Assembly: GCA_964424305.1 (NCBI GenBank)
Contig: CAYRHW010000006.1
Span: forward strand, 1 to 58,612
Origin: an uncultured Candidatus Saccharibacteria bacterium
GTDB lineage: Bacteria > Patescibacteriota > Minisyncoccia > Minisyncoccales > Staskawiczbacteraceae
Reading direction: 5' to 3'
DNA length: 58,612 bases
Both the position numbers and the translations under genes were made by a program. The notes below the pieces were generated by a model. That model had not been told where the DNA came from. It saw only the letters and a program-made list of their open reading frames with translations, and made no database searches. Of this stretch, positions 13,685 through 39,457 are shown piece by piece (position 1 is the first letter of the stretch; each line of letters starts with the position of its first letter).

Positions 13685-13936
13685 ATGATCAGTAAAGAGG
13701 AATTTTTAACCGAACATAACAGGTTATCTCCTGTAAAATTGCAAACTACCATAAGTTTGCTTAATCGTTTTAAAGAAGAGAAAAGGCCTCTTTTAAAAGA
13801 TAATGGTTGGTCCATAGATAAACTTAGGATCCCACTAATCACCTGGCTTCTTTCGTTGCCGATAATAGAAAAAGTAAAAATTAAGACAAAGAGAGGAAAA
13901 CAGGTATTTAAAGATTATCCTCGAACTAAATTTTAA
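13685..13936 (+). CDS. hypothetical protein
   Basis: 83-aa ORF with no recognisable motif. Confidence 0.45.
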   Translation: MISKEEFLTEHNRLSPVKLQTTISLLNRFKEEKRPLLKDNGWSIDKLRIPLITWLLSLPIIEKVKIKTKRGKQVFKDYPRTKF

Positions 13937-16261: not shown

Positions 16262-16340
16262 TTAGATATTTTCATTGAACTTATTAGGTGATAAAATGGG
16301 GATATATAAATTATAATAATTAATAAAAGAATACACATAA

Positions 16341-17393
16341 ATGATAATTAATCAGAAGACATATACCGTAGAGAGTGTAACTGCTGGCCATCCAGATAAA
16401 GTTTGCGACCAGATATCAGACGCAATCTTAGATGCCTGCTTGGCACAAGATGTTAACTCGAGGGTAGCGGTTGAATCATTCGGTGGGCATGGATTAGTTG
16501 TTGTCGGCGGTGAAGTAACATCTTCAGCTAAGGTTGATTATCAGGAAGTAGCAAGAAGGGTATATAAAGAGATTGGGTACGATCAGGATCTTAAATTTTT
16601 GATTAATATTGTTCAGCAGTCTCCAGACATAGCCATGGGGGTAGATACTGGTGGGGCAGGAGATCAGGGAATTATGTATGGCTACGCCACCAACGAGACG
16701 CCGGAATTCTTGCCTTGGGCAGTCGTGAAGGTGCATGCTTTGGCAAAAGGGTTGGAAGATTTAAGGAAGCAGGGTGGTATTAAATGGTTAAGACCAGATG
16801 GCAAAACGCAACTTACAATGGAGAATAGAAAATTAAGGACAGTTTTAGTAAGCACCCAACATGATGATAAAGTATCGCAAGAAGAGATAAAAGAAACTTT
16901 AATTGAGAAGTTAATAAAACCGATTGTTGGTGATGTCTCCGAAGTAGAGATTTTAGTTAATCCAACCGGCCGATTTTTCCAGGGAGGATTTGAGGCAGAT
17001 ACAGGGCTCACGGGGCGCAAAATAATGGTGGATACTTATTGCGGACTGATTCCCCACGGTGGGGGATGTTTCTCGGGAAAGGATTCTAGCAAGGTTGATA
17101 GATCGGCTGCCTATATGGCGAGATTTGTCGCTAAAAATATTGTGGCCAATGGGCACGCGAAACAATGTATGGTTTCGGTGGCCTATGCAATTGGCAAGGT
17201 AGATCCTCTGATGGTGGAGGCTGTAGATGAAAATGGGGAAAGCATAAGTAAGGAGATAATTTCTAAATTTGATTTTCGTCCATTAGAAATTATTAAAAAG
17301 CTTAATTTGCGAAGACCAATTTATCAGCAAACAGCGGCCTATGGTCATTTCGGGAAAAATGGCCTACCCTGGGAGGAGATAATAAAAATTTAA
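16341..17393 (+). CDS. metK: S-adenosylmethionine synthetase
   Basis: ESVTAGHPDKVCDQISDAILDA, GAGDQGIMYGYA and GGGCFSGKD motifs. Confidence 0.92.
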   Translation: MIINQKTYTVESVTAGHPDKVCDQISDAILDACLAQDVNSRVAVESFGGHGLVVVGGEVTSSAKVDYQEVARRVYKEIGYDQDLKFLINIVQQSPDIAMGVDTGGAGDQGIMYGYATNETPEFLPWAVVKVHALAKGLEDLRKQGGIKWLRPDGKTQLTMENRKLRTVLVSTQHDDKVSQEEIKETLIEKLIKPIVGDVSEVEILVNPTGRFFQGGFEADTGLTGRKIMVDTYCGLIPHGGGCFSGKDSSKVDRSAAYMARFVAKNIVANGHAKQCMVSVAYAIGKVDPLMVEAVDENGESISKEIISKFDFRPLEIIKKLNLRRPIYQQTAAYGHFGKNGLPWEEIIKI

Positions 17394-17403
17394 TATAACA
17401 TAA

Positions 17404-17739
17404 ATGAGTACTATCATAACTGATCAAAATTTCGACGAAGAGATAAATAATCCAGACAAACTTGTCTTGGTAGATTTTTTTGCAACATGGTGTGGCCCCT
17501 GCTCTGTTTTGGGTCCAATTATCGAGAAAGTTGCAGAAGAATTTAAAGATCAGGTTGTTTTACTAAAGGTGGACCTTGATGGTATTCCATCAACAGCCCA
17601 GAAGTTTGGGATTGATAGAATTCCAACTGTGGTCATTTTTAAAGATAGCAAACCCGTTGATGGATTCGTTGGTTTGCTCGCGGAGGGGGAGATTGTTAAT
17701 TGGCTAAAAAAAGTAATAGAAAAAAACAATGGAAAATAA
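17404..17739 (+). CDS. trxA: thioredoxin
   Basis: WCGPC active site in a 111-aa thioredoxin fold. Confidence 0.92.
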   Translation: MSTIITDQNFDEEINNPDKLVLVDFFATWCGPCSVLGPIIEKVAEEFKDQVVLLKVDLDGIPSTAQKFGIDRIPTVVIFKDSKPVDGFVGLLAEGEIVNWLKKVIEKNNGK

Positions 17740-18031
17740 TAATCAGTCGCCCATAACAGAGGATATGCAGAAAAAAATGGATGAGCTAGCAGAATGGTCT
17801 GCTAATTATGCCAAGGAGAGTGGTTTTAATTTAAACCCAGATAAAACAGTCGTCCAAAGATTAATGAGGGGGTTATTGGAGAATGAGAAAAAGCAAGGTC
17901 AAAAAACTTGCCCCTGTAGAAGGTTCACCGGCAACAAAGAGATAGATGTGAAGAGTGTTTGCCCCTGCTATTACCACAAAGATGAAATTGGTAAAGGTGG
18001 GCATTGTCTATGTAATCTATTCGTGAAATAG
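17729..18031 (+). CDS. ferredoxin:thioredoxin reductase catalytic subunit-like protein
   Basis: Cys pattern CPCR...CPCYYH...HCLCNLF, typical of FTR beta (FeThRed_B). It overlaps trxA by 11 nt. Confidence 0.8.
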   Translation: MENNNQSPITEDMQKKMDELAEWSANYAKESGFNLNPDKTVVQRLMRGLLENEKKQGQKTCPCRRFTGNKEIDVKSVCPCYYHKDEIGKGGHCLCNLFVK

Positions 18032-18032
18032 A

Positions 18033-18884
18033 ATGGAGGAAAGAATAAATCTAATAAGAGATAACAAATCGGTTGCTTTATTGGCTCCAACCTTCGCCAT
18101 AGATTTTAAGTATCCCGCAATTATAGGGATGTTAAAGAAACTTGGCTTTGATGAAGTGACGGAGCTTACCTATGGGGCAAGGATGGTGAATTGGGCCTAT
18201 GCTAAATATATTAAGGATAATCCCGACCAAAAGTTTTTCATTGCCTCTCCTTGTCCTACGGTTGTGGCTTTTGTGCAATCACAGTATCCCGAACTAGTGA
18301 AATATTTAATGCCCGTTGTTTCTCCCCTGGTGGCAATGGCAAAAGTTTACAAGAAACATAACCCGGGCCATAGGGTTGTCTTTATCTCTCCATGTCTTGC
18401 CAAGAAAATCATTGAGGCTCCAAAATTCAAAGAATTTATTGACGACGTGATAACACTCCAAGAGTTAAAGCAAATGTTTGCTGAGCAGGGGATCAAAGAG
18501 GAGGATTTTACCGAAGATTACCAATTCGACTCTTTTATAAGGGAATATACAAAGATCTATCCTATTTCTGGTGGCTTGGCCTCAACCTCTCATATTAAAA
18601 GTCTTTTTAGAGAGGGAGAGATATTAATTACAGACGGGATTGAAAACATAAAAAAAGCCTTGGATGATATTAAACACTTTCGGTCACAATATAGGTTTTT
18701 TGATTTACTTAATTGTGATGGCGGATGTATCGGTGGCCCTTCAATAAATAATAGGGACCTTAGCATGGAAGAGAAGAAAAGAATTGTCTTGGGATATACA
18801 ACTAGATCATCTGAAGAAAATATGGGCAAGCACAAGGGGGAAATTAAAGATGCTGAGGAGGTGGATTTGAATACAAGTTTTTAG
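18033..18884 (+). CDS. [FeFe]-hydrogenase large-subunit C-terminal domain family protein (H-domain-like, no F-cluster domain)
   Basis: Collinear with the H-domain. L1-like IASPCP replaces TSCCP, L2-like ISPCLAKKIIE, L3-like LNCDGGCIGGP. It starts 1 nt after the FTR stop. Confidence 0.75.
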   Translation: MEERINLIRDNKSVALLAPTFAIDFKYPAIIGMLKKLGFDEVTELTYGARMVNWAYAKYIKDNPDQKFFIASPCPTVVAFVQSQYPELVKYLMPVVSPLVAMAKVYKKHNPGHRVVFISPCLAKKIIEAPKFKEFIDDVITLQELKQMFAEQGIKEEDFTEDYQFDSFIREYTKIYPISGGLASTSHIKSLFREGEILITDGIENIKKALDDIKHFRSQYRFFDLLNCDGGCIGGPSINNRDLSMEEKKRIVLGYTTRSSEENMGKHKGEIKDAEEVDLNTSF

Positions 18885-18890
18885 GCGGTG

Positions 18891-18916
18891 TCAGCCGTAA
18901 AGGGCTGATTTTTTTT
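18891..18916 (+). terminator. intrinsic terminator of the metK-trx-ftr-hyd operon
   Basis: TCAGCC 18891-18896 / GGCTGA 18903-18908, with an 8-nt T-run at 18909-18916. Confidence 0.8.
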
Positions 18917-19096
18917 GAAATAATCAAAGACAGATTGACGTATATATTTTGTAAGGTAAAGGTCGAGCTATTAATAAAAAAGCAAGGAGTCTCGAGAATT
19001 GCGAGGCTCCTTGCGATTGTTCAAAGATAGCTATTTTGAGCGACCTTCTTTTGTGTACCTATTGTGCTAAAATTAGAATAATAATTACCCTTTGCC

Positions 19097-19681
19097 ATGC
19101 CCATCGAAAATTCCAATATCAGCGATATGGACGACAAGGAATTAATTGCCATCTCTCTGAAGGAAAAAGAGAATTATGGATATCTAATACAGAGATATGA
19201 GGCAAGGTTGTTGAGATACATCATCAGGTTGTCTGGGGTTAGAAAAGAAGACGCCGAAGATATCCTCCAAGAAACTTTCATAAAAGTATACAAGAATCTG
19301 AATGAATATAATGCCAATCTCAGTTTTTCCGCCTGGATATATCGCATTACCCATAATGAAACAATTAGCCATCTGAGACGGCTCAAAGCAAGGCCAAAAA
19401 TTGCTGAAAGCGAAGACAGCAGCCTTCTAATGGATTTTGTAAAAAGTGATCCTGGATTTGGCGCGGATATTGAGAATAAATTCTTGGCGAAGGATCTGGC
19501 AGAGGTTATCGATAGCCTAGATGATAAATATCGGGATGTGATTATATTGATGTACCTTGAGGATAAAAGTTATAAAGAGATATCAGATATTATTAAAAAA
19601 CCAGTGGGGACCGTTGCCACTCTCATCTCTAGGGCGAAGAAACAACTTAAAGATAAAATTATGAAAAATAATCATTTCTAA
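19097..19681 (+). CDS. ECF-type RNA polymerase sigma-70 family factor
   Basis: Region 2 (EDAEDILQETFIKVYKNL...SAWIYRITHNE) and region 4 HTH (SYKEISDIIKKPVGTVATLISRAKKQL). Confidence 0.88.
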   Translation: MPIENSNISDMDDKELIAISLKEKENYGYLIQRYEARLLRYIIRLSGVRKEDAEDILQETFIKVYKNLNEYNANLSFSAWIYRITHNETISHLRRLKARPKIAESEDSSLLMDFVKSDPGFGADIENKFLAKDLAEVIDSLDDKYRDVIILMYLEDKSYKEISDIIKKPVGTVATLISRAKKQLKDKIMKNNHF

Positions 19682-19685
19682 TGTT

Positions 19686-20393
19686 ATGTCCCTAATCTCG
19701 GAAAAAATTACAAAGGATATCCAGGATCAAAAAATTGAACCTCGTCCAAGGTGGTATTTTCTGTTTAAAAATTATGGGATTCTAACTCTTTTTGTTCTTT
19801 CTATCGTTTGTGGGGCCGCTGCAGTCAGCACGATTTTGTTCATGATAGTGGATTACGATCGAGATATCGCCCGCTATCTTGATAGAAGTGAACTCAAAGA
19901 TATTATTCTGTCGGTTCCATACTTTTGGATTATTATTTTGATTATTTTTCTTTCGGCCGCTTATTATAATTTTAAAAAATCCTACACCGGATATCGCTAT
20001 GAGTTATACAAAGTTTTCCTTATAAGTTTCGCGCTTAGCGTTATCCTTGGCGTCGGGTTGTATTATGGTGGGCTAGACTCTCAGATTGATGAATTCCTAT
20101 CGCAGAGAATTCCACTCTATGAAAATTTTATTTACAACAAAGATGATGTCTGGGTCTCTCCGGAACAAGGACTTTTGAGTGGCCGGGTAGTTGAGGTTGG
20201 GGAGGTAGATAAGTTTGTTCTCGAGGACTTTAACGGAAAGGTTTGGCAAGTAGAAGAAATAAAAACTGATGAATCTAATTTTCCAAAAATTAGGAAAGAT
20301 CTTGAGTTAAAGCTAATTGGTAAAAAGACTGGCGACAATACATTTGATGCAGAAAATATCAGGCCGTGGAAGAACAATGGGCGACGAAATTAA
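19686..20393 (+). CDS. membrane protein, putative anti-sigma factor
   Basis: Lies 4 nt downstream of the ECF sigma gene. It has multiple TMs and a C-terminal soluble domain. The function is assigned from position only. Confidence 0.5.
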   Translation: MSLISEKITKDIQDQKIEPRPRWYFLFKNYGILTLFVLSIVCGAAAVSTILFMIVDYDRDIARYLDRSELKDIILSVPYFWIIILIIFLSAAYYNFKKSYTGYRYELYKVFLISFALSVILGVGLYYGGLDSQIDEFLSQRIPLYENFIYNKDDVWVSPEQGLLSGRVVEVGEVDKFVLEDFNGKVWQVEEIKTDESNFPKIRKDLELKLIGKKTGDNTFDAENIRPWKNNGRRN

Positions 20394-23907: not shown

Positions 23908-24207
23908 ATGACAGTCCTACAGGTAGTATTCATTTTAATATCAGCTTTTTTGGGCTATCTCATCGGGAGAGTGGGCGATCGTTATATTAATCCGTTGATG
24001 AAAGATCCTTCCTGGGCCCCACATCACTGGATCTATGGAGCAATAATAATGATAATCGGCCTAGTCCTTATGGAAAAACAGGCAATGGGTTTATGGTTAT
24101 TCTCATTCGGCCTCGGACATCTTATAAGTGACTTCAACGATTTTGTAGATTTGAAGTTTATTGGCTCAGATAATAAAGAGAATCCGAAATTTTGGGGAAT
24201 TGATTAG
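23908..24207 (+). CDS. small membrane protein
   Basis: 99 aa with 3 TMs. It has a leaderless promoter: TGgTATAAT with -10 at 23896-23901, then ATG 6 nt later. Confidence 0.6.
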   Translation: MTVLQVVFILISAFLGYLIGRVGDRYINPLMKDPSWAPHHWIYGAIIMIIGLVLMEKQAMGLWLFSFGLGHLISDFNDFVDLKFIGSDNKENPKFWGID

Positions 24208-24655: not shown

Positions 24656-24780
24656 TGGTTTTATAGTTGAATTTTTGAGGAAGTTTGTCAAGGGGTTGTT
24701 CTTTTGGGTAGTTTTTGTGATAAACTGATAGTAAATAAAAAATTAAATAATTTCGAATGGCACGATGGTGCCTCAATAAT

Positions 24781-25338
24781 ATGAACAAAACACAAGAAAA
24801 CTTGCTAAAAGCAATCGCCGGGGAGTCTATGGCAAGAAATAAGTATACCTATTATGCCGAAATTGCGATGAAGGAGGGATTGGTTTGGATAGCCAGAGTC
24901 TTTGAAGAAACGGCCGATAACGAAAGGGCTCATGCTCAAGAAGAATTAGAAAAGATAAAGGGAAAAGCCGAAATGACAAATACCTATGATATCCATGAGT
25001 TGGGGGATACCTTGGAAAATTTAAAGAATGCATCGGAGGGAGAAAAATATGAGTTTGGAACAATGTATCCTGGATTTGAAAAGATAGCCCGAGAGGAAGG
25101 AGAAGAAGAAATTGCCACACTATTTAAAGAAATTTCAGAAGTAGAGGAGAAACACGCTGAAAGATATGACCTATTGGCTAAAAAGCTAGAAGAAGGCACA
25201 TTATTCAAGAGCGAAGGCGAAATCGAATGGAAGTGTCTAAATTGTGGCTATATCCACAAAGGAAAATCGGCGCCAGATGAGTGCCCCCTTTGCAAGAAAG
25301 CCCAAGGATATTACATGGGTTTAAAAGTAGTAAGATAA
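24781..25338 (+). CDS. rbr: rubrerythrin
   Basis: Diiron ExxH motifs (ERAHAQEE, EEKHAERY) plus a C-terminal rubredoxin-like CLNCGY...CPLC. ATG 24781 (MNKTQENLL) is preferred. Confidence 0.9.
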   Translation: MNKTQENLLKAIAGESMARNKYTYYAEIAMKEGLVWIARVFEETADNERAHAQEELEKIKGKAEMTNTYDIHELGDTLENLKNASEGEKYEFGTMYPGFEKIAREEGEEEIATLFKEISEVEEKHAERYDLLAKKLEEGTLFKSEGEIEWKCLNCGYIHKGKSAPDECPLCKKAQGYYMGLKVVR

Positions 25339-32476: not shown

Positions 32477-32842
32477 ATGGAAAGAAAAACACCACAGAAG
32501 CAAAAGGTATTAGATTATCTTAGGGGTGTATACACCCACCCATCGGCCGAAACAGTTTATGCTGCCGTTAAGAAGAAGGTGCCGAATATCAGCAAAGGGA
32601 CGGTTTATAGGATATTAAAGAATGCTGTGGGGAAAAAAGAAATTCAGGAAATTCCGGCCGAGGTCTCAAGATATGATGGCAATGTTTCCTCTCATGCTCA
32701 TTTCGTTTGCGAAAAGTGCAGTAGCATCTACGACCTTATGGATTTTTGCCAAGATTGTTCTATTTTAAAAAATAAAAAAACAAAGGTCGGAAAAATTAAT
32801 AAATACACAGTAAATTTTTATGGAATCTGTAACAAATGCTAA
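32477..32842 (+). CDS. Fur family transcriptional regulator (PerR-like by context)
   Basis: Short wHTH (HPSAETVYAAV...ISKGTVYRIL) plus two CxxC pairs (CEKC, CNKC). Confidence 0.8.
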   Translation: MERKTPQKQKVLDYLRGVYTHPSAETVYAAVKKKVPNISKGTVYRILKNAVGKKEIQEIPAEVSRYDGNVSSHAHFVCEKCSSIYDLMDFCQDCSILKNKKTKVGKINKYTVNFYGICNKC

Positions 32843-33133: not shown

Positions 33134-33508
33134 ATGATAGCAATAAAACAAGTATATCGTTGTAGCGTCTGTGGGAATATTGTGGAGGTTCTCTTCGCAG
33201 GCGGGGGCGAGTTGGTCTGTTGCGGCAAGCCGATGATTTTACAGGAAGAGAAGAGCGAAGATGTGGGGTCAGAGAAACATGTCCCGATTGTTACGAGGGA
33301 GGGAGACAAGATAAAGATAAGAGTTGGGAGTGTTCTCCACCCAATGGATCCCGAGCACTATATCGAGTGGATAGAGTGCAGCAATGGAGAAAGCTATTCT
33401 AGAAAATTCTTAAAACCAGGTGACTCTCCGGAGGCAGAATTCGAAATGATGGGAGATAACATAGGCGCCCGAGCCTACTGTAATATTCATGGACTTTGGA
33501 GGTCATAA
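33134..33508 (+). CDS. dfx: desulfoferrodoxin (2Fe superoxide reductase)
   Basis: N-terminal desulforedoxin CSVCGN...CCGKPM. Centre II ligands sit in EKHVP, HPMDPEHYIEW and CNIHGLW. Confidence 0.9.
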   Translation: MIAIKQVYRCSVCGNIVEVLFAGGGELVCCGKPMILQEEKSEDVGSEKHVPIVTREGDKIKIRVGSVLHPMDPEHYIEWIECSNGESYSRKFLKPGDSPEAEFEMMGDNIGARAYCNIHGLWRS

Positions 33509-36721: not shown

Positions 36722-37869
36722 AGAGAATATATTTAGATTATGCAGCAACCACTCCCGTCGACCCTCGTGTTCTTAGGGCGATGGTTCCTTTTTTTACAAA
36801 AAGGTTTGGGAACACAATGTCTCTCCATTCTTTCGGTCAGGATGCAAAATTAGTTTTAGAAGAAAGCCGAGAAAAAGTGGCCAGTTTAATCGGAGCTAAA
36901 TCAGAAGAGATAATATTTACGAGTTCTGCCACCGAAAGTAATAATTTTGCATTAAAGGGATTGGCTTTTGCTAATAAAGATAAAAAACATATCATTGTCT
37001 CTGCAATCGAGCATCCCTGTGTTATAGAAAGTGCTAATTGGCTAAAAAAACAAGGGTATCAAATAACAAGGGTCCCTGTTAATAAATTTGGGCAAGTTAA
37101 TCCGGAAGATGTTAAGAGGGCCATAACCAAAGATACGCTTTTGGTTTCTATTATCCATGCTTCAAACGAGATAGGAACTATTCAGCCAATAGAGAAAATT
37201 GGAAAGATCTGCAGAGAGGCAGGTGTATATTTTCATACAGATGCATCTCAGAGCTTCGGAAAGATTTCCATTGATGTTAATAAGATGAATATCGACTTAC
37301 TTACAGCCAGTGGCCATAAAATATATGGGCCAAAGGGTGTAGGACTTTTGTTTATACGTCATGGTGTAAAAATTGAGCCCTTACTGCACGGAGGAGGACA
37401 GGAAAATGGTTTGAGATCTTCAACTGTGAACATTCCTGCTATTGTTGGTTTTGCCAGAGCAGTTGAAATCTGTAATGAAGAAATGAAAACAGAGGGCGGG
37501 AGATTAATAAAATTAAGGGATAAATTAATAAAAGGGGTTTTAAAGATAAAAAATAGTTATTTAAACGGACACCCAGAAGACAGGCTCCCAAATAATGCTA
37601 ATTTCCGCTTTGATTTTATAGAAGGAGAATCTTTGATCATCCAGTTGGATATGGCAGGAGTAGCCTGTTCTACTGGTTCTGCCTGCTCTTCAATTAAATT
37701 AGAGCCAAGCCATGTTCTATTGGCAATTGGATTAAAGGCGGAACAGGCCCATGGATCATTGCGTGTTTCTCTGGGGCGTCAAACAACAGAAAGTGATGTC
37801 GATTATTTAGTTAAGATTTTACCCGGGATAATTAAACAATTAAGGAGTATTTCTCCATTTGGAAAATAA
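36718..37869 (+). CDS. nifS: cysteine desulfurase (NifS/IscS class)
   Basis: PLP Lys in SGHKIYGPKG and catalytic Cys loop STGSACSS. It overlaps the Rrf2 stop (ATGA). Confidence 0.92.
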   Translation: MKRIYLDYAATTPVDPRVLRAMVPFFTKRFGNTMSLHSFGQDAKLVLEESREKVASLIGAKSEEIIFTSSATESNNFALKGLAFANKDKKHIIVSAIEHPCVIESANWLKKQGYQITRVPVNKFGQVNPEDVKRAITKDTLLVSIIHASNEIGTIQPIEKIGKICREAGVYFHTDASQSFGKISIDVNKMNIDLLTASGHKIYGPKGVGLLFIRHGVKIEPLLHGGGQENGLRSSTVNIPAIVGFARAVEICNEEMKTEGGRLIKLRDKLIKGVLKIKNSYLNGHPEDRLPNNANFRFDFIEGESLIIQLDMAGVACSTGSACSSIKLEPSHVLLAIGLKAEQAHGSLRVSLGRQTTESDVDYLVKILPGIIKQLRSISPFGK

Positions 37870-37870
37870 C

Positions 37871-39457
37871 ATGAAACCAACGAGTGTTTATACAAAAAAG
37901 GTTTTAAGTCTATTTAAAAAACCTCATAACTACGGAAGAATGAAAAATGCAGACGGTATCGGCAGGGTGGGGAATCCAGTTTGTTTACTCCCAGGGCAGA
38001 ATGTTCACATGAATAATGATATGAATGAGATAAACGCAATTTCCAGAGAAGATAGAGTTTTATCTCACGATGGATTATATAACTTTGTTGATAAAATTGC
38101 AGAAAGAAATTACGTCGGAGAAATTTTGGAAGTAAAAAATGGTCTAGGAAAGATCAAATTAACATCAGAGCACCTTGTGTTGGCGATAAAAATTCCCGAA
38201 GGAGATAAATTCTTAAGGACAAAAAATAGGAAAAAATTATCCGTTGGTTGGTATCATATAAATCAACTGGAAAAAGGAGATATGGTTTTATACCCCATAT
38301 TGAAAGAGAAAAAGGATTTAGCGTATTTAAAAATAGATGTCCCCATGGCCAAATGGGATTTTAGAAGTAAGGAGATCCCGAGTAAGGTTCCCGTTAATTC
38401 GGAATTTTTGAGGCTAGTTGGTTACTTTTTGGCAGAGGGGAATATCCAAGATAAGCCATGCAAGACTTACATCTCGTTTTCTTTAAATATACAAGAAAAA
38501 TACATCGTTGAGGATATAAAGAAAATATCAAAAGACTTATTTGGTCTAGATGCGACCTCGAAAGAGAAGAAAAAAACTAAAACGGTCGTCGTGTATCTAT
38601 ACAGCGCGAGATTAGCAAGGTTTTTTAAGCAATTATTCGGTAACGGAGCCGAGCATAAAAAACTCCCTGAGGTTTTTATGAATTTACCTATTAAAAAACA
38701 GGAACATTTAATATGTGGATTGTGGCGGGGTGACGGTTGCGTCAATTTGAATAGGGACGGCGCAAGGGCAGGGTATTCAACGGTTTCTTATAATTTAGCT
38801 CAACAGCTAAAAACACTACTCATTAGGCAAAAGATAGTGCCATCTATTTATAAAGAAAAAGCGAGAGAAATAAATGGAGTTAGACATAAGGAGTCATATA
38901 GGATCCATGTTGGCCAACGGGAATCTTTAACGAGGTTATGCTTAATATTAGGCATAAAATATAAGGCAAAGTCTTATGCTTCAGAGAAATTATGGGTTGA
39001 TGATGATTATGTTTACACCCCAATAACGAAAATTACGAAAAATAAATATAAAGGTAATGTTTATAATCTGGAGGTCAAGGGGTCCCATTCTTTTGTAACA
39101 GAGGCTTTTTGTCTTCATAATTGTGGCGATGTAATGTGGCTATATATCAAAGTCGGCCAAAATAAGAAGAAGCAGGAGATAATAAAAGACATTAAGTTTG
39201 AAACTTTCGGCTGCGTAGCCGCAATATCCACTAGTAGCATAATCACGGACCTAGCCAAGGGGAAAACAATAACAGAAGCCCTAGAAATTACCAAAGATAA
39301 TGTTGTTGATTCTTTGGGGGGATTGCCCAAGATAAAATTCCATTGTTCGGTTTTGGCAGTAGATGCTTTAGCCGAGGCAATTTTTGATTATCTGAAGAAG
39401 AATAAAAAAGAAATACCCGCAAGTTTAAAAAAGTTTCATGAAAGAAACGAAGTCTAA
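37871..39457 (+). CDS. iscU: Fe-S cluster scaffold IscU/NifU, interrupted by a 380-aa intein
   Basis: Exteins GRVGNPV | CGDVMWLYIKV...FGCVAAISTSS...KFHCSVLA carry the three conserved IscU Cys. The spliced size would be 148 aa. Confidence 0.88.
   Translation: MKPTSVYTKKVLSLFKKPHNYGRMKNADGIGRVGNPVCLLPGQNVHMNNDMNEINAISREDRVLSHDGLYNFVDKIAERNYVGEILEVKNGLGKIKLTSEHLVLAIKIPEGDKFLRTKNRKKLSVGWYHINQLEKGDMVLYPILKEKKDLAYLKIDVPMAKWDFRSKEIPSKVPVNSEFLRLVGYFLAEGNIQDKPCKTYISFSLNIQEKYIVEDIKKISKDLFGLDATSKEKKKTKTVVVYLYSARLARFFKQLFGNGAEHKKLPEVFMNLPIKKQEHLICGLWRGDGCVNLNRDGARAGYSTVSYNLAQQLKTLLIRQKIVPSIYKEKAREINGVRHKESYRIHVGQRESLTRLCLILGIKYKAKSYASEKLWVDDDYVYTPITKITKNKYKGNVYNLEVKGSHSFVTEAFCLHNCGDVMWLYIKVGQNKKKQEIIKDIKFETFGCVAAISTSSIITDLAKGKTITEALEITKDNVVDSLGGLPKIKFHCSVLAVDALAEAIFDYLKKNKKEIPASLKKFHERNEV
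37982..39121 (+). mobile_element. intein with LAGLIDADG homing endonuclease, inserted at the first cluster-ligand Cys of IscU
   Basis: Block A CLLPG (Cys1 = 37982-37984), block B LTSEH, LAGLIDADG motifs LVGYFLAEGN and ICGLWRGDGC, and terminal VYNLEVKGSHSFVTEAFCLHN followed by +1 Cys (39122). Confidence 0.85.

Follow-up and report, generated by a model that had tools for sequence, protein, structure and literature searches.

Does a hydrogenase-like protein deliver the electrons with which a patescibacterium reduces its thioredoxin, or are the genes of two redox systems simply expressed together? This question is raised by three tightly packed genes in a stretch of 58,612 nucleotides (contig CAYRHW010000006.1, positions 1 to 58,612 of the forward strand; in the following termed the window), which stems from a lake-water metagenome and whose best protein matches are found in Patescibacteria (Parcubacteria), close to Staskawiczbacteria. 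The first gene, trxA (17404..17739, + strand), encodes a thioredoxin (Trx) of 111 aa with the motif WCGPC. The second, ftrC (17729..18031, +), encodes a 100-aa homologue of the catalytic subunit (FTRc) of ferredoxin:thioredoxin reductase (FTR), and the third, hyd (18033..18884, +), a 283-aa homologue of [FeFe]-hydrogenases that comprises the H-domain only (Hyd). A preliminary description of the locus had viewed the three proteins as a possible new thioredoxin-reducing module, with Hyd as the electron-input partner of the reductase. The comparisons described below point to a less unusual arrangement, in which Trx and the FTRc homologue are predicted to form an Fe-S thioredoxin system of the type known from archaeal ferredoxin:disulfide reductase (FDR), Hyd groups with the ultraminimal hydrogenases of archaea, and both systems, in the reading we lean towards, draw on the same pool of low-potential electrons without being obligate partners.

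A predicted thioredoxin system of the FDR type

The trxA product has the thioredoxin fold and the corresponding active site: PF00085 matches residues 4-103 (4e-30), the TIGR01068 score is 110.3 bits at a cut-off of 96.8, and WCGPC occupies residues 29-33. Its neighbor matches PF02943 (1.2e-20) and contains six Cys residues in total, arranged as CPC-x14-CPC-x12-(H)CLC. The preliminary description had read the letters CPC...CPC...HCLC correctly and had interpreted them as a usual CHC motif that was changed to CLC with its His shifted, but there is nothing peculiar in this, as HC(L/F)C is the usual form among 91 relatives that we collected. The x14/x12 spacing is identical in 91/91 of them, and the middle residue of the last motif is L or F in most relatives, with Y in the structures from archaea. 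A His stands just before the last Cys motif in 75/91, and another is located three residues past the second CPC in 90/91. As the spacing is that of the FDR type and HC(L/F)C is the norm across the relatives, the "shifted His" is, as far as sequence comparison can tell, a family trait and not the remnant of a damaged plant CHC motif.

The closest solved structures lead to the same family. 4tpu_A (1.7e-18) and 7pwe_A (5e-15) both align gap-free through all six Cys residues, the former over residues 15-88, whereas plant and cyanobacterial FTRc proteins reach only 4e-7 to 9e-5, with 7bzk and 1dj7 at 4e-7 to 4e-5, and require gaps. 4tpu_A, which was deposited as "Rubredoxin", is the FTR-like FDR of Methanosarcina acetivorans, an enzyme on which Kumar et al. 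and Wei et al. reportedly worked in 2015. Like this FDR (4TPU), the window protein belongs to the FTRc fold family, shows the pattern CPC-x14-CPC-x12-CxC, has no variable subunit (FTRv) and is associated with a Trx-like substrate. Unlike it, the window protein has HC(L/F)C in place of CYC and no C-terminal rubredoxin, as the 100-aa protein ends with the FTRc domain and has no Cys beyond the six; moreover, the host is bacterial, and the substrate is a canonical WCGPC Trx that is often fused to the reductase in relatives. With the plant and cyanobacterial FTR (1DJ7, 7BZK), the protein shares PF02943, the six Cys residues, the expected [4Fe-4S] and disulfide chemistry and thioredoxin as product, but these enzymes have x16/x8 spacing, CHC and FTRv, whereas x14/x12 spacing, no CHC and no FTRv were found here. 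A plant-type FTR with a mutated CHC motif was therefore rejected on the grounds of the spacing and of the best structural relatives. That no variable subunit is encoded nearby had been stated before, and indeed the precomputed Pfam hits listed for genes called up to 10 kb to either side of hyd include no FTRv family, nor does a conserved small FTRv-like partner gene recur across the related loci. According to passages in PMC6262447 and PMC5704485, FDRs are Fe-S enzymes that are related to FTRc and reduce Trx-like proteins, and one FDR is reported there to pass electrons from ferredoxin to the class III ribonucleotide reductase (RNR) of M. barkeri.

Such systems are common, with more than 535 related stretches confirmed in a metagenome scan. 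The locus counts on the side of the reductase refer to 80 metagenome loci that were found with the FTRc alignment, and in 79 of these the gene immediately upstream encodes a Trx homologue. A single stop-free reading frame holds the motifs of both proteins in 31 of 91 loci. Since adjacency and shared frames link the two proteins in this way, there is strong genomic evidence for thioredoxin as the predicted substrate of the FTRc homologue. The natural Trx-FTRc fusions have a length of about 170-200 aa and occur in L001 (5384-5992), where the gene caller annotates a fused 202-aa protein, as well as in 30 other loci (e.g. L057, L059, L063, L068, L128); no description of them was found in the literature searched. 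The FTRc homologues comprise 68-171 aa and contain PF02943 either alone or preceded by PF00085. With this linkage, the fusions and the Methanosarcina FDR as nearest solved relative, the earlier idea of an Fe-S thioredoxin-reducing pair, made up of Trx and the FTRc homologue and independent of flavin and NADPH, is upheld as a prediction. Judged by these comparisons, the system is of a known kind, the FDR kind, in a new Patescibacteria form that is rubredoxin-less and often Trx-fused.

As for other thioredoxin reductases, motif searches detected neither TrxB nor rubredoxin in the window, and only one TrxB-like open reading frame was seen across about 1.15 Mb of related loci. It encodes 307 aa with the motif CATCDA and lies at position ~3900 (+) of L071, about 3.3 kb downstream of the Trx-FTRc pair, and at least one Patescibacteria lineage may thus hold both NADPH-type and Fe-S-type thioredoxin reductases.

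Ferredoxin as the most likely electron donor

From where would such a reductase obtain its electrons? In 16 of the 80 loci, a gene for a 58-64-aa ferredoxin with a single [4Fe-4S] cluster (Pfam Fer4, Fer4_15) is located directly 5' of Trx-FTRc. This ferredoxin gene is often preceded by genes for an FMN protein with a Glu_synthase domain and for proteins with Nitro_FeMo-Co domains, and the ferredoxin-linked Trx-FTRc genes are often followed by NrdD, the anaerobic RNR, or by ArsR-NifS-NifU-MnmA. As the ferredoxin gene accompanies these loci in a way that mirrors the published route from ferredoxin via FDR and a redoxin to NrdD, gene neighborhood indicates that ferredoxin is most likely the electron donor of the FDR-type FTRc family. 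The Nitro_FeMo-Co proteins, a Glu_synthase FMN protein of 397 aa and the ferredoxin make up a second conserved context of Trx-FTRc in other Patescibacteria (L066, L073, L080, L096, L102, L105, L107, L111, L114-L116, L127 and L128), and this ferredoxin-linked context resembles a complete supply line from ferredoxin to thioredoxin to RNR.

Hyd as a putative group-E-like hydrogenase

PF02906 is the sole Pfam domain of Hyd (2e-43, residues 15-236). The protein contains exactly four Cys residues (74, 121, 228 and 232) in the motifs SPCP, SPCL and CDGGC, and they align with C300, C355, C499 and C503 of the hydrogenase CpI, in agreement with the earlier statement that the four [4Fe-4S]-ligating positions are retained. 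The fold is likewise that of an H-domain: with the AlphaFold2 model (pLDDT 85, pTM 0.84), Foldseek retrieved only H-domains of [FeFe]-hydrogenases (CpI, CbA5H, HydABC) at query-normalised TM scores of 0.7-0.79. Because there is no further Cys in the protein, Hyd has no F-cluster domain, as had already been noticed. The replacement of the proton-relay Cys by Pro, to which the preliminary description had drawn attention, is real, as P73 aligns with CpI C299, but it is not a peculiarity of this protein, since it is common to the clade including three Nanoarchaeia homologues (SPCP/TPCP). In the wider clade, the relay position varies between P, A, T, V, N and S, with Pro in the examined Patescibacteria and Nanoarchaeia proteins. 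The remainder of the canonical proton pathway is missing in Hyd as well, as CpI E279 corresponds to Y56, R286 to Y59 and S319 to M93, and E282 is deleted. Q325, M353 and M497, which line the diiron site of CpI, are replaced by L99, S119 and L226. Invariant columns among 24 diverse short homologues include the four Cys residues, K124 (CpI K358), S97 (S323), P120 (P354) and A18-P19, the latter probably corresponding to CpI A230-P231 by the Pfam register, and this invariance argues that the pocket for the diiron subcluster is still under selection.

In a set of 5.8 billion proteins, Hyd has 556 homologous clusters. The best 120 of these 556 are 64-82% identical to Hyd and nearly all 283-287 aa long, and the hosts named among them are Staskawicz-, Moran-, Buchanan- and Parcubacteria. 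An exhaustive search among 50%-identity representatives added about 20 further clusters that consist of the H-domain only (256-316 aa), and past these short clusters follow proteins of 550-800 aa in which the H-domain starts near residue 70. Genome scans revealed the same short protein in Nanoarchaeia (42-44% identity), and a search that started from one of these archaeal proteins returned proteins of Nanoarchaeia, Iainarchaeota, Diapherotrites and Pacearchaeota as well as a Parcubacteria protein at 45%. In a neighbor-joining tree that was calculated without bootstrap and without the published group E reference sequences, all short proteins, archaeal and patescibacterial, form one clade beside the long ones, and the Patescibacteria proteins form a tight subclade therein. 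The long multidomain proteins of the sister group are presumably group C-like.

"Ultraminimal" [FeFe]-hydrogenases have been defined as group E in DPANN archaea (Greening et al. 2024, PMC11216029). They have a mean length of 286 residues, are monomeric, carry one [4Fe-4S] cluster in addition to the diiron site, depart from the canon in their proton-transfer residues, and branch as the sister group of the sensory group C. The group E member Fm binds the H-cluster and evolves H2 upon artificial maturation, and the archaeal host genomes are devoid of HydE, HydF and HydG (PMC11216029). Hyd agrees with this group in its size (283 aa as compared to ~285 aa), in the restriction to the H-domain, in the single [4Fe-4S] site without accessory clusters, in (S/T)PCP instead of TSCCP, in the solitary gene without maturase genes nearby, and in its position in a common clade with the DPANN enzymes (42-45% identity) that is sister to the group C-like proteins. 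It differs in the Patescibacteria host and in belonging to a very highly conserved subclade of its own, and group E has been defined from archaeal genomes only. By these features, Hyd is best assigned to the ultraminimal group-E-like clade, as one of its members from Patescibacteria. Our literature search found no paper that places Patescibacteria proteins in group E, and no paper that links FTR or FDR with a hydrogenase in Patescibacteria. Hyd is far more conserved across Patescibacteria (64-82% among the best 120 of 556 clusters) than FTRc (~46-64%) or Trx (~45-65%), for which strong constraint and recent lateral spread are the options.

Two other families with H-domains have features that Hyd does not share. 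There is no Cys before residue 74 and so no N-terminal Cys cluster of the Nar1/NARFL type, and a protein of 283 aa with PF02906 alone has neither the N-terminal Fe-S domain nor the C-terminal PAS or other signaling domain of the sensory group C. More distant relatives in metagenome-assembled genomes of Bacillota/Clostridia (L033, L036, L039, L041, L044, L047-L049) are tandem arrays of two to three long H-domain genes, which adjoin a gene family (cluster c31) that resembles SpoIIE/PP2C-type phosphatases by eye only. A layout of tandem H-domain genes with a phosphatase is typical of sensory group C hydrogenases.

Hyd and the reductase as neighbors

In the window, the three genes are packed as closely as had been described, with an overlap of 11 nt between trxA and ftrC and 1 nt between the ftrC stop codon and the start of hyd. 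The gene upstream is metK (S-adenosylmethionine synthetase, 16341..17393, +, an open reading frame with the N, M and C domains of S-AdoMet_synt), and since its stop codon is 10 nt upstream of the trxA start and no terminator lies in between, metK probably opens the transcription unit. A promoter-like site ahead of metK (16288-16317) has 10 of 12 matches, which is not above chance. Downstream of hyd, a terminator-like hairpin (GTCAGCC-GTAAAG-GGCTGAT) followed by TTTTTTT is located at 18890..18917 (+), and with this apparent end the putative operon is probably (metK)-trxA-ftrC-hyd. A look for transcripts gave no RNA run in which the region is contained. The window begins at one end of its contig, which is 141.5 kb long.

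The proximity of Hyd to Trx-FTRc is confined to one lineage. Our survey comprised 24 Patescibacteria loci from GTDB species representatives in which Hyd identity reaches 50% or more, and Trx-FTRc is found within 5 kb upstream of Hyd in 10 of the 24, all ten being Staskawiczbacteria-like. In these ten, the genes belong to a block with the order typA-(c14)-uppP-tm100-TRX-FTR-obg-tm102-HYD-tm126-rpoD<-dnaG<-HIT<, in which obg, encoding a GTPase, and the gene of a small membrane protein stand between the reductase and Hyd. In genomes of the Moran-, Buchanan- and Berkelbacteria type, in other Patescibacteria and in three archaeal loci, Hyd is alone among unrelated genes; no conserved redox partner is found beside it in these other lineages, the neighbors being unrelated housekeeping genes save for a rubrerythrin in three loci. 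Seen from the reductase, Hyd is within reach of FTRc in 13 of the 80 loci, or in 5 of 29 if only loci with 3 kb or more of downstream sequence are counted, and about 80% of the Trx-FTRc loci are without Hyd. The three genes are direct neighbors in the window, L001, L084 and L100 (gaps of 8-56 nt in the latter three), and L051 and L072 are nearly adjacent, with gaps of ~400 nt. Within the block, either system can stand without the other, as L055, L101, L064 and L068 contain Trx-FTRc without Hyd and L025 contains Hyd without Trx-FTRc. As the window still carries remnants of the block (c14 at 13685, tm100 at 23908), its gene trio is, according to this synteny, a rearranged copy of the ancestral neighborhood and not an independent association. 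A fusion of FTRc with an H-domain, which would have been "Rosetta-stone" evidence of a partnership, was found neither among the 95 FTRc hits nor among the best 120 of the 556 Hyd matches; only Trx-FTRc fusions occur.

Two systems that probably share one electron pool

How can these observations be reconciled? We consider it slightly better than an even bet that two ferredoxin-linked systems are co-expressed here because they share one low-potential electron pool. For the thioredoxin system, family, motif and linkage are read directly from the genes, and for its cluster chemistry, donor and clients we infer the following course. The [4Fe-4S] cluster of FTRc, ligated by four of the six Cys residues, would accept single electrons from a carrier of low potential, for which a small [4Fe-4S] ferredoxin encoded elsewhere in the genome is the likeliest candidate. 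The cluster would then reduce the active-site disulfide of the same protein, which in turn would reduce the WCGPC thioredoxin, and reduced Trx would serve clients such as class III RNR, or peroxide or disulfide repair. Hyd would be a monomeric enzyme with one [4Fe-4S] site and a conserved diiron pocket but without the canonical proton-relay residues, and it would most likely exchange electrons between H2/H+ and the shared ferredoxin pool at modest rates. Its cluster content, its donor, its H2 activity and its maturation in vivo are suggested by the step from homology to chemistry. Co-transcription would result from the common use of the low-potential pool and from the compaction of an inherited neighborhood; Hyd and the reductase would not be obligate partners, and any flux from H2 to thioredoxin would have to pass via ferredoxin.

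Several observations do not fit easily with this shared-pool model. Ferredoxin-linked and Hyd-linked Trx-FTRc loci do not overlap in any of the 80 loci, which could mean that Hyd replaces ferredoxin; with an expected overlap of only ~2.6 loci and with loci that are phylogenetically dependent, this exclusivity is a lead and not a result. A ferredoxin gene was not found by motif search within the window, where CxxCxxCxxxCP occurs in no frame, in accordance with the earlier statement that none is adjacent. HydE, HydF and HydG were seen neither in the window nor in the ~1.15 Mb of related loci mentioned above, and no maturase-like genes flank Hyd or Trx-FTRc in some 130 related loci. Finally, the three genes are translationally tight in the window, and no more than two genes separate Trx-FTRc from Hyd in at least three different arrangements (trx-ftr-obg-tm102-Hyd, obg-trx/ftr-Hyd and metK-trx-ftr-Hyd), a proximity that pure drift would be expected to break. 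This persistence together with the tight coupling is a mildly suggestive hint of a partnership. What weighs against an obligate partnership of Hyd and reductase is that the association is confined to one lineage, that the block consists of housekeeping genes and that fusions are lacking.

Among the alternatives, the one that survives best, albeit as a rather unlikely one, is that Hyd is not a hydrogenase in the cell at all. It would carry only the [4Fe-4S] cluster and would act as redox carrier, sensor or Fe-S handler in a Nar1/NARFL-like logic, and might contribute to thiol or Fe-S homeostasis alongside Trx-FTRc. The missing maturase-like genes in the window and the flanks would agree with this, as would the replacement or deletion of all five canonical proton-pathway residues, the variability of the relay position and the rubrerythrin neighbors in L022, L023 and L027, and the identity of 64-82% (best 120 of 556) over distant Patescibacteria suggests a constrained housekeeping role. 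However, the flanks examined are a small part of each genome, the N-terminal Cys cluster of the Nar1 type is absent, and the invariance of residues that line the diiron site (K358, S323-P324 and the bridging Cys in CpI numbering) is hard to explain if no diiron subcluster is bound. Moreover, the host of the archaeal Fm protein is likewise without maturases, and Fm nevertheless binds the H-cluster and makes H2 once matured (PMC11216029).

The distribution of the genes does not support the direct route that the preliminary description had proposed, and we regard it as improbable that Hyd is the dedicated electron-input subunit of the reductase. In such a trio, Hyd would dock on the ferredoxin side of FTRc and feed in electrons from H2 or from its own cluster, as an H2:thioredoxin oxidoreductase. 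What speaks for it is the tight gene coupling in the window, the adjacent or near genes in the five loci listed above, an association that outlasts three gene orders, and the mutual exclusion of adjacent-ferredoxin and Hyd loci. The isoelectric points would also be compatible with docking, as that of Hyd (pI 6.0) is mildly acidic and that of FTRc (pI 8.2) mildly basic, and the single exposed cluster of Hyd without accessory clusters implies that some redox partner is needed (PMC11216029). But Hyd is near only 13 of the 80 FTRc loci, all in the housekeeping block of one lineage and usually with obg and a membrane gene in between, it lacks Trx-FTRc as a neighbor in all three archaeal loci and in most of the Patescibacteria lineages that were examined, it is never fused to the reductase in the sequences compared while Trx-FTRc fusions are common, and the loss of the canonical proton pathway argues against fast H2 turnover. 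A hydrogenase that hands electrons to an Fe-S disulfide reductase is known from the Mvh-Hdr complex of methanogens, which is not homologous and resembles the direct route in logic only: Mvh belongs to the [NiFe] enzymes, and Hdr uses non-cubane clusters and flavin-based bifurcation. An evolutionary version of the direct route, which we rate a shade lower still, would be that Hyd has replaced ferredoxin as FDR donor in the Staskawiczbacteria-like lineage, and that the trio of ~500 aa is a flavin-free and nucleotide-free H2:thioredoxin oxidoreductase. If this were true, an ultrasmall symbiont could use environmental H2 to keep its thiols in the reduced state.

Beyond the terminator that follows hyd, a gene for a sigma factor of the extracytoplasmic function (ECF) type (Sigma70_r2/r4_2) is located at 19097-19681, beside a gene for a membrane protein of 235 aa without Pfam match that may be the anti-sigma factor (the pair spans 19097-20393, +); this pair is not kept beside Hyd in other loci. 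Degenerate proton pathways have also been reported for sensory hydrogenases. That Hyd is an H2 sensor like its sister group C and controls this sigma factor and membrane protein is nevertheless very improbable, because Hyd has no PAS or other signaling domain, a terminator separates hyd from the sigma gene and the sigma gene neighbors Hyd in no other locus, even if the tree with its long group C-like sister proteins, the likewise sister position of group E to group C (PMC11216029), the downstream sigma gene and the degenerate pathway of Hyd would be in line with it.

Redox and Fe-S genes in the surroundings

The window contains further genes of this kind. Within 15 kb downstream of the trio, rubrerythrin (24757-25338), a Fur/PerR-family regulator (32477-32842) and a superoxide reductase of the desulfoferrodoxin type (33134-33508) are encoded. 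A rubrerythrin gene is also found directly beside the Hyd homologue, in convergent orientation, in L022, L023 and L027, and such proximity may link the minimal hydrogenase to peroxide or oxygen defense. The window also carries an Rrf2-NifS-NifU-MnmA-ThiI cluster. Its NifU/IscU-type scaffold gene (37859-39457, +) encodes 532 aa with an intein inserted past the conserved GNPVC, as indicated by a NifU_N match only at residues 420-517 and, between GNPVC and this match, by hits to Intein_splicing and to LAGLIDADG_3, a homing-endonuclease domain. HydE, HydF or HydG were recognised neither in the window nor in the 10 kb beyond it, and the only radical-SAM motif in the window belongs to a gene for a 331-aa radical-SAM protein (PF04055) that is RlmN-like by eye. 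The 10 kb past the far end of the window encode ribosomal proteins, SecY and ProRS.

Significance

On present evidence, the trio is an ordinary co-expressed redox operon, and both of its parts are of kinds that have already been described. If Hyd truly delivers electrons to the reductase, no simpler route from H2 to protein thiols than this trio would be known. Independently of this, the ultraminimal hydrogenase family described from DPANN includes bacteria of the other ultrasmall radiation, where its branch is large and strongly conserved, and the reach of such minimal enzymes is thereby widened. The question of how the H-cluster matures without HydE, HydF and HydG is sharpened as well. And in the Patescibacteria, organisms with very little recognisable redox metabolism, an FDR-type Trx system, often in Trx-fused form, is widespread.

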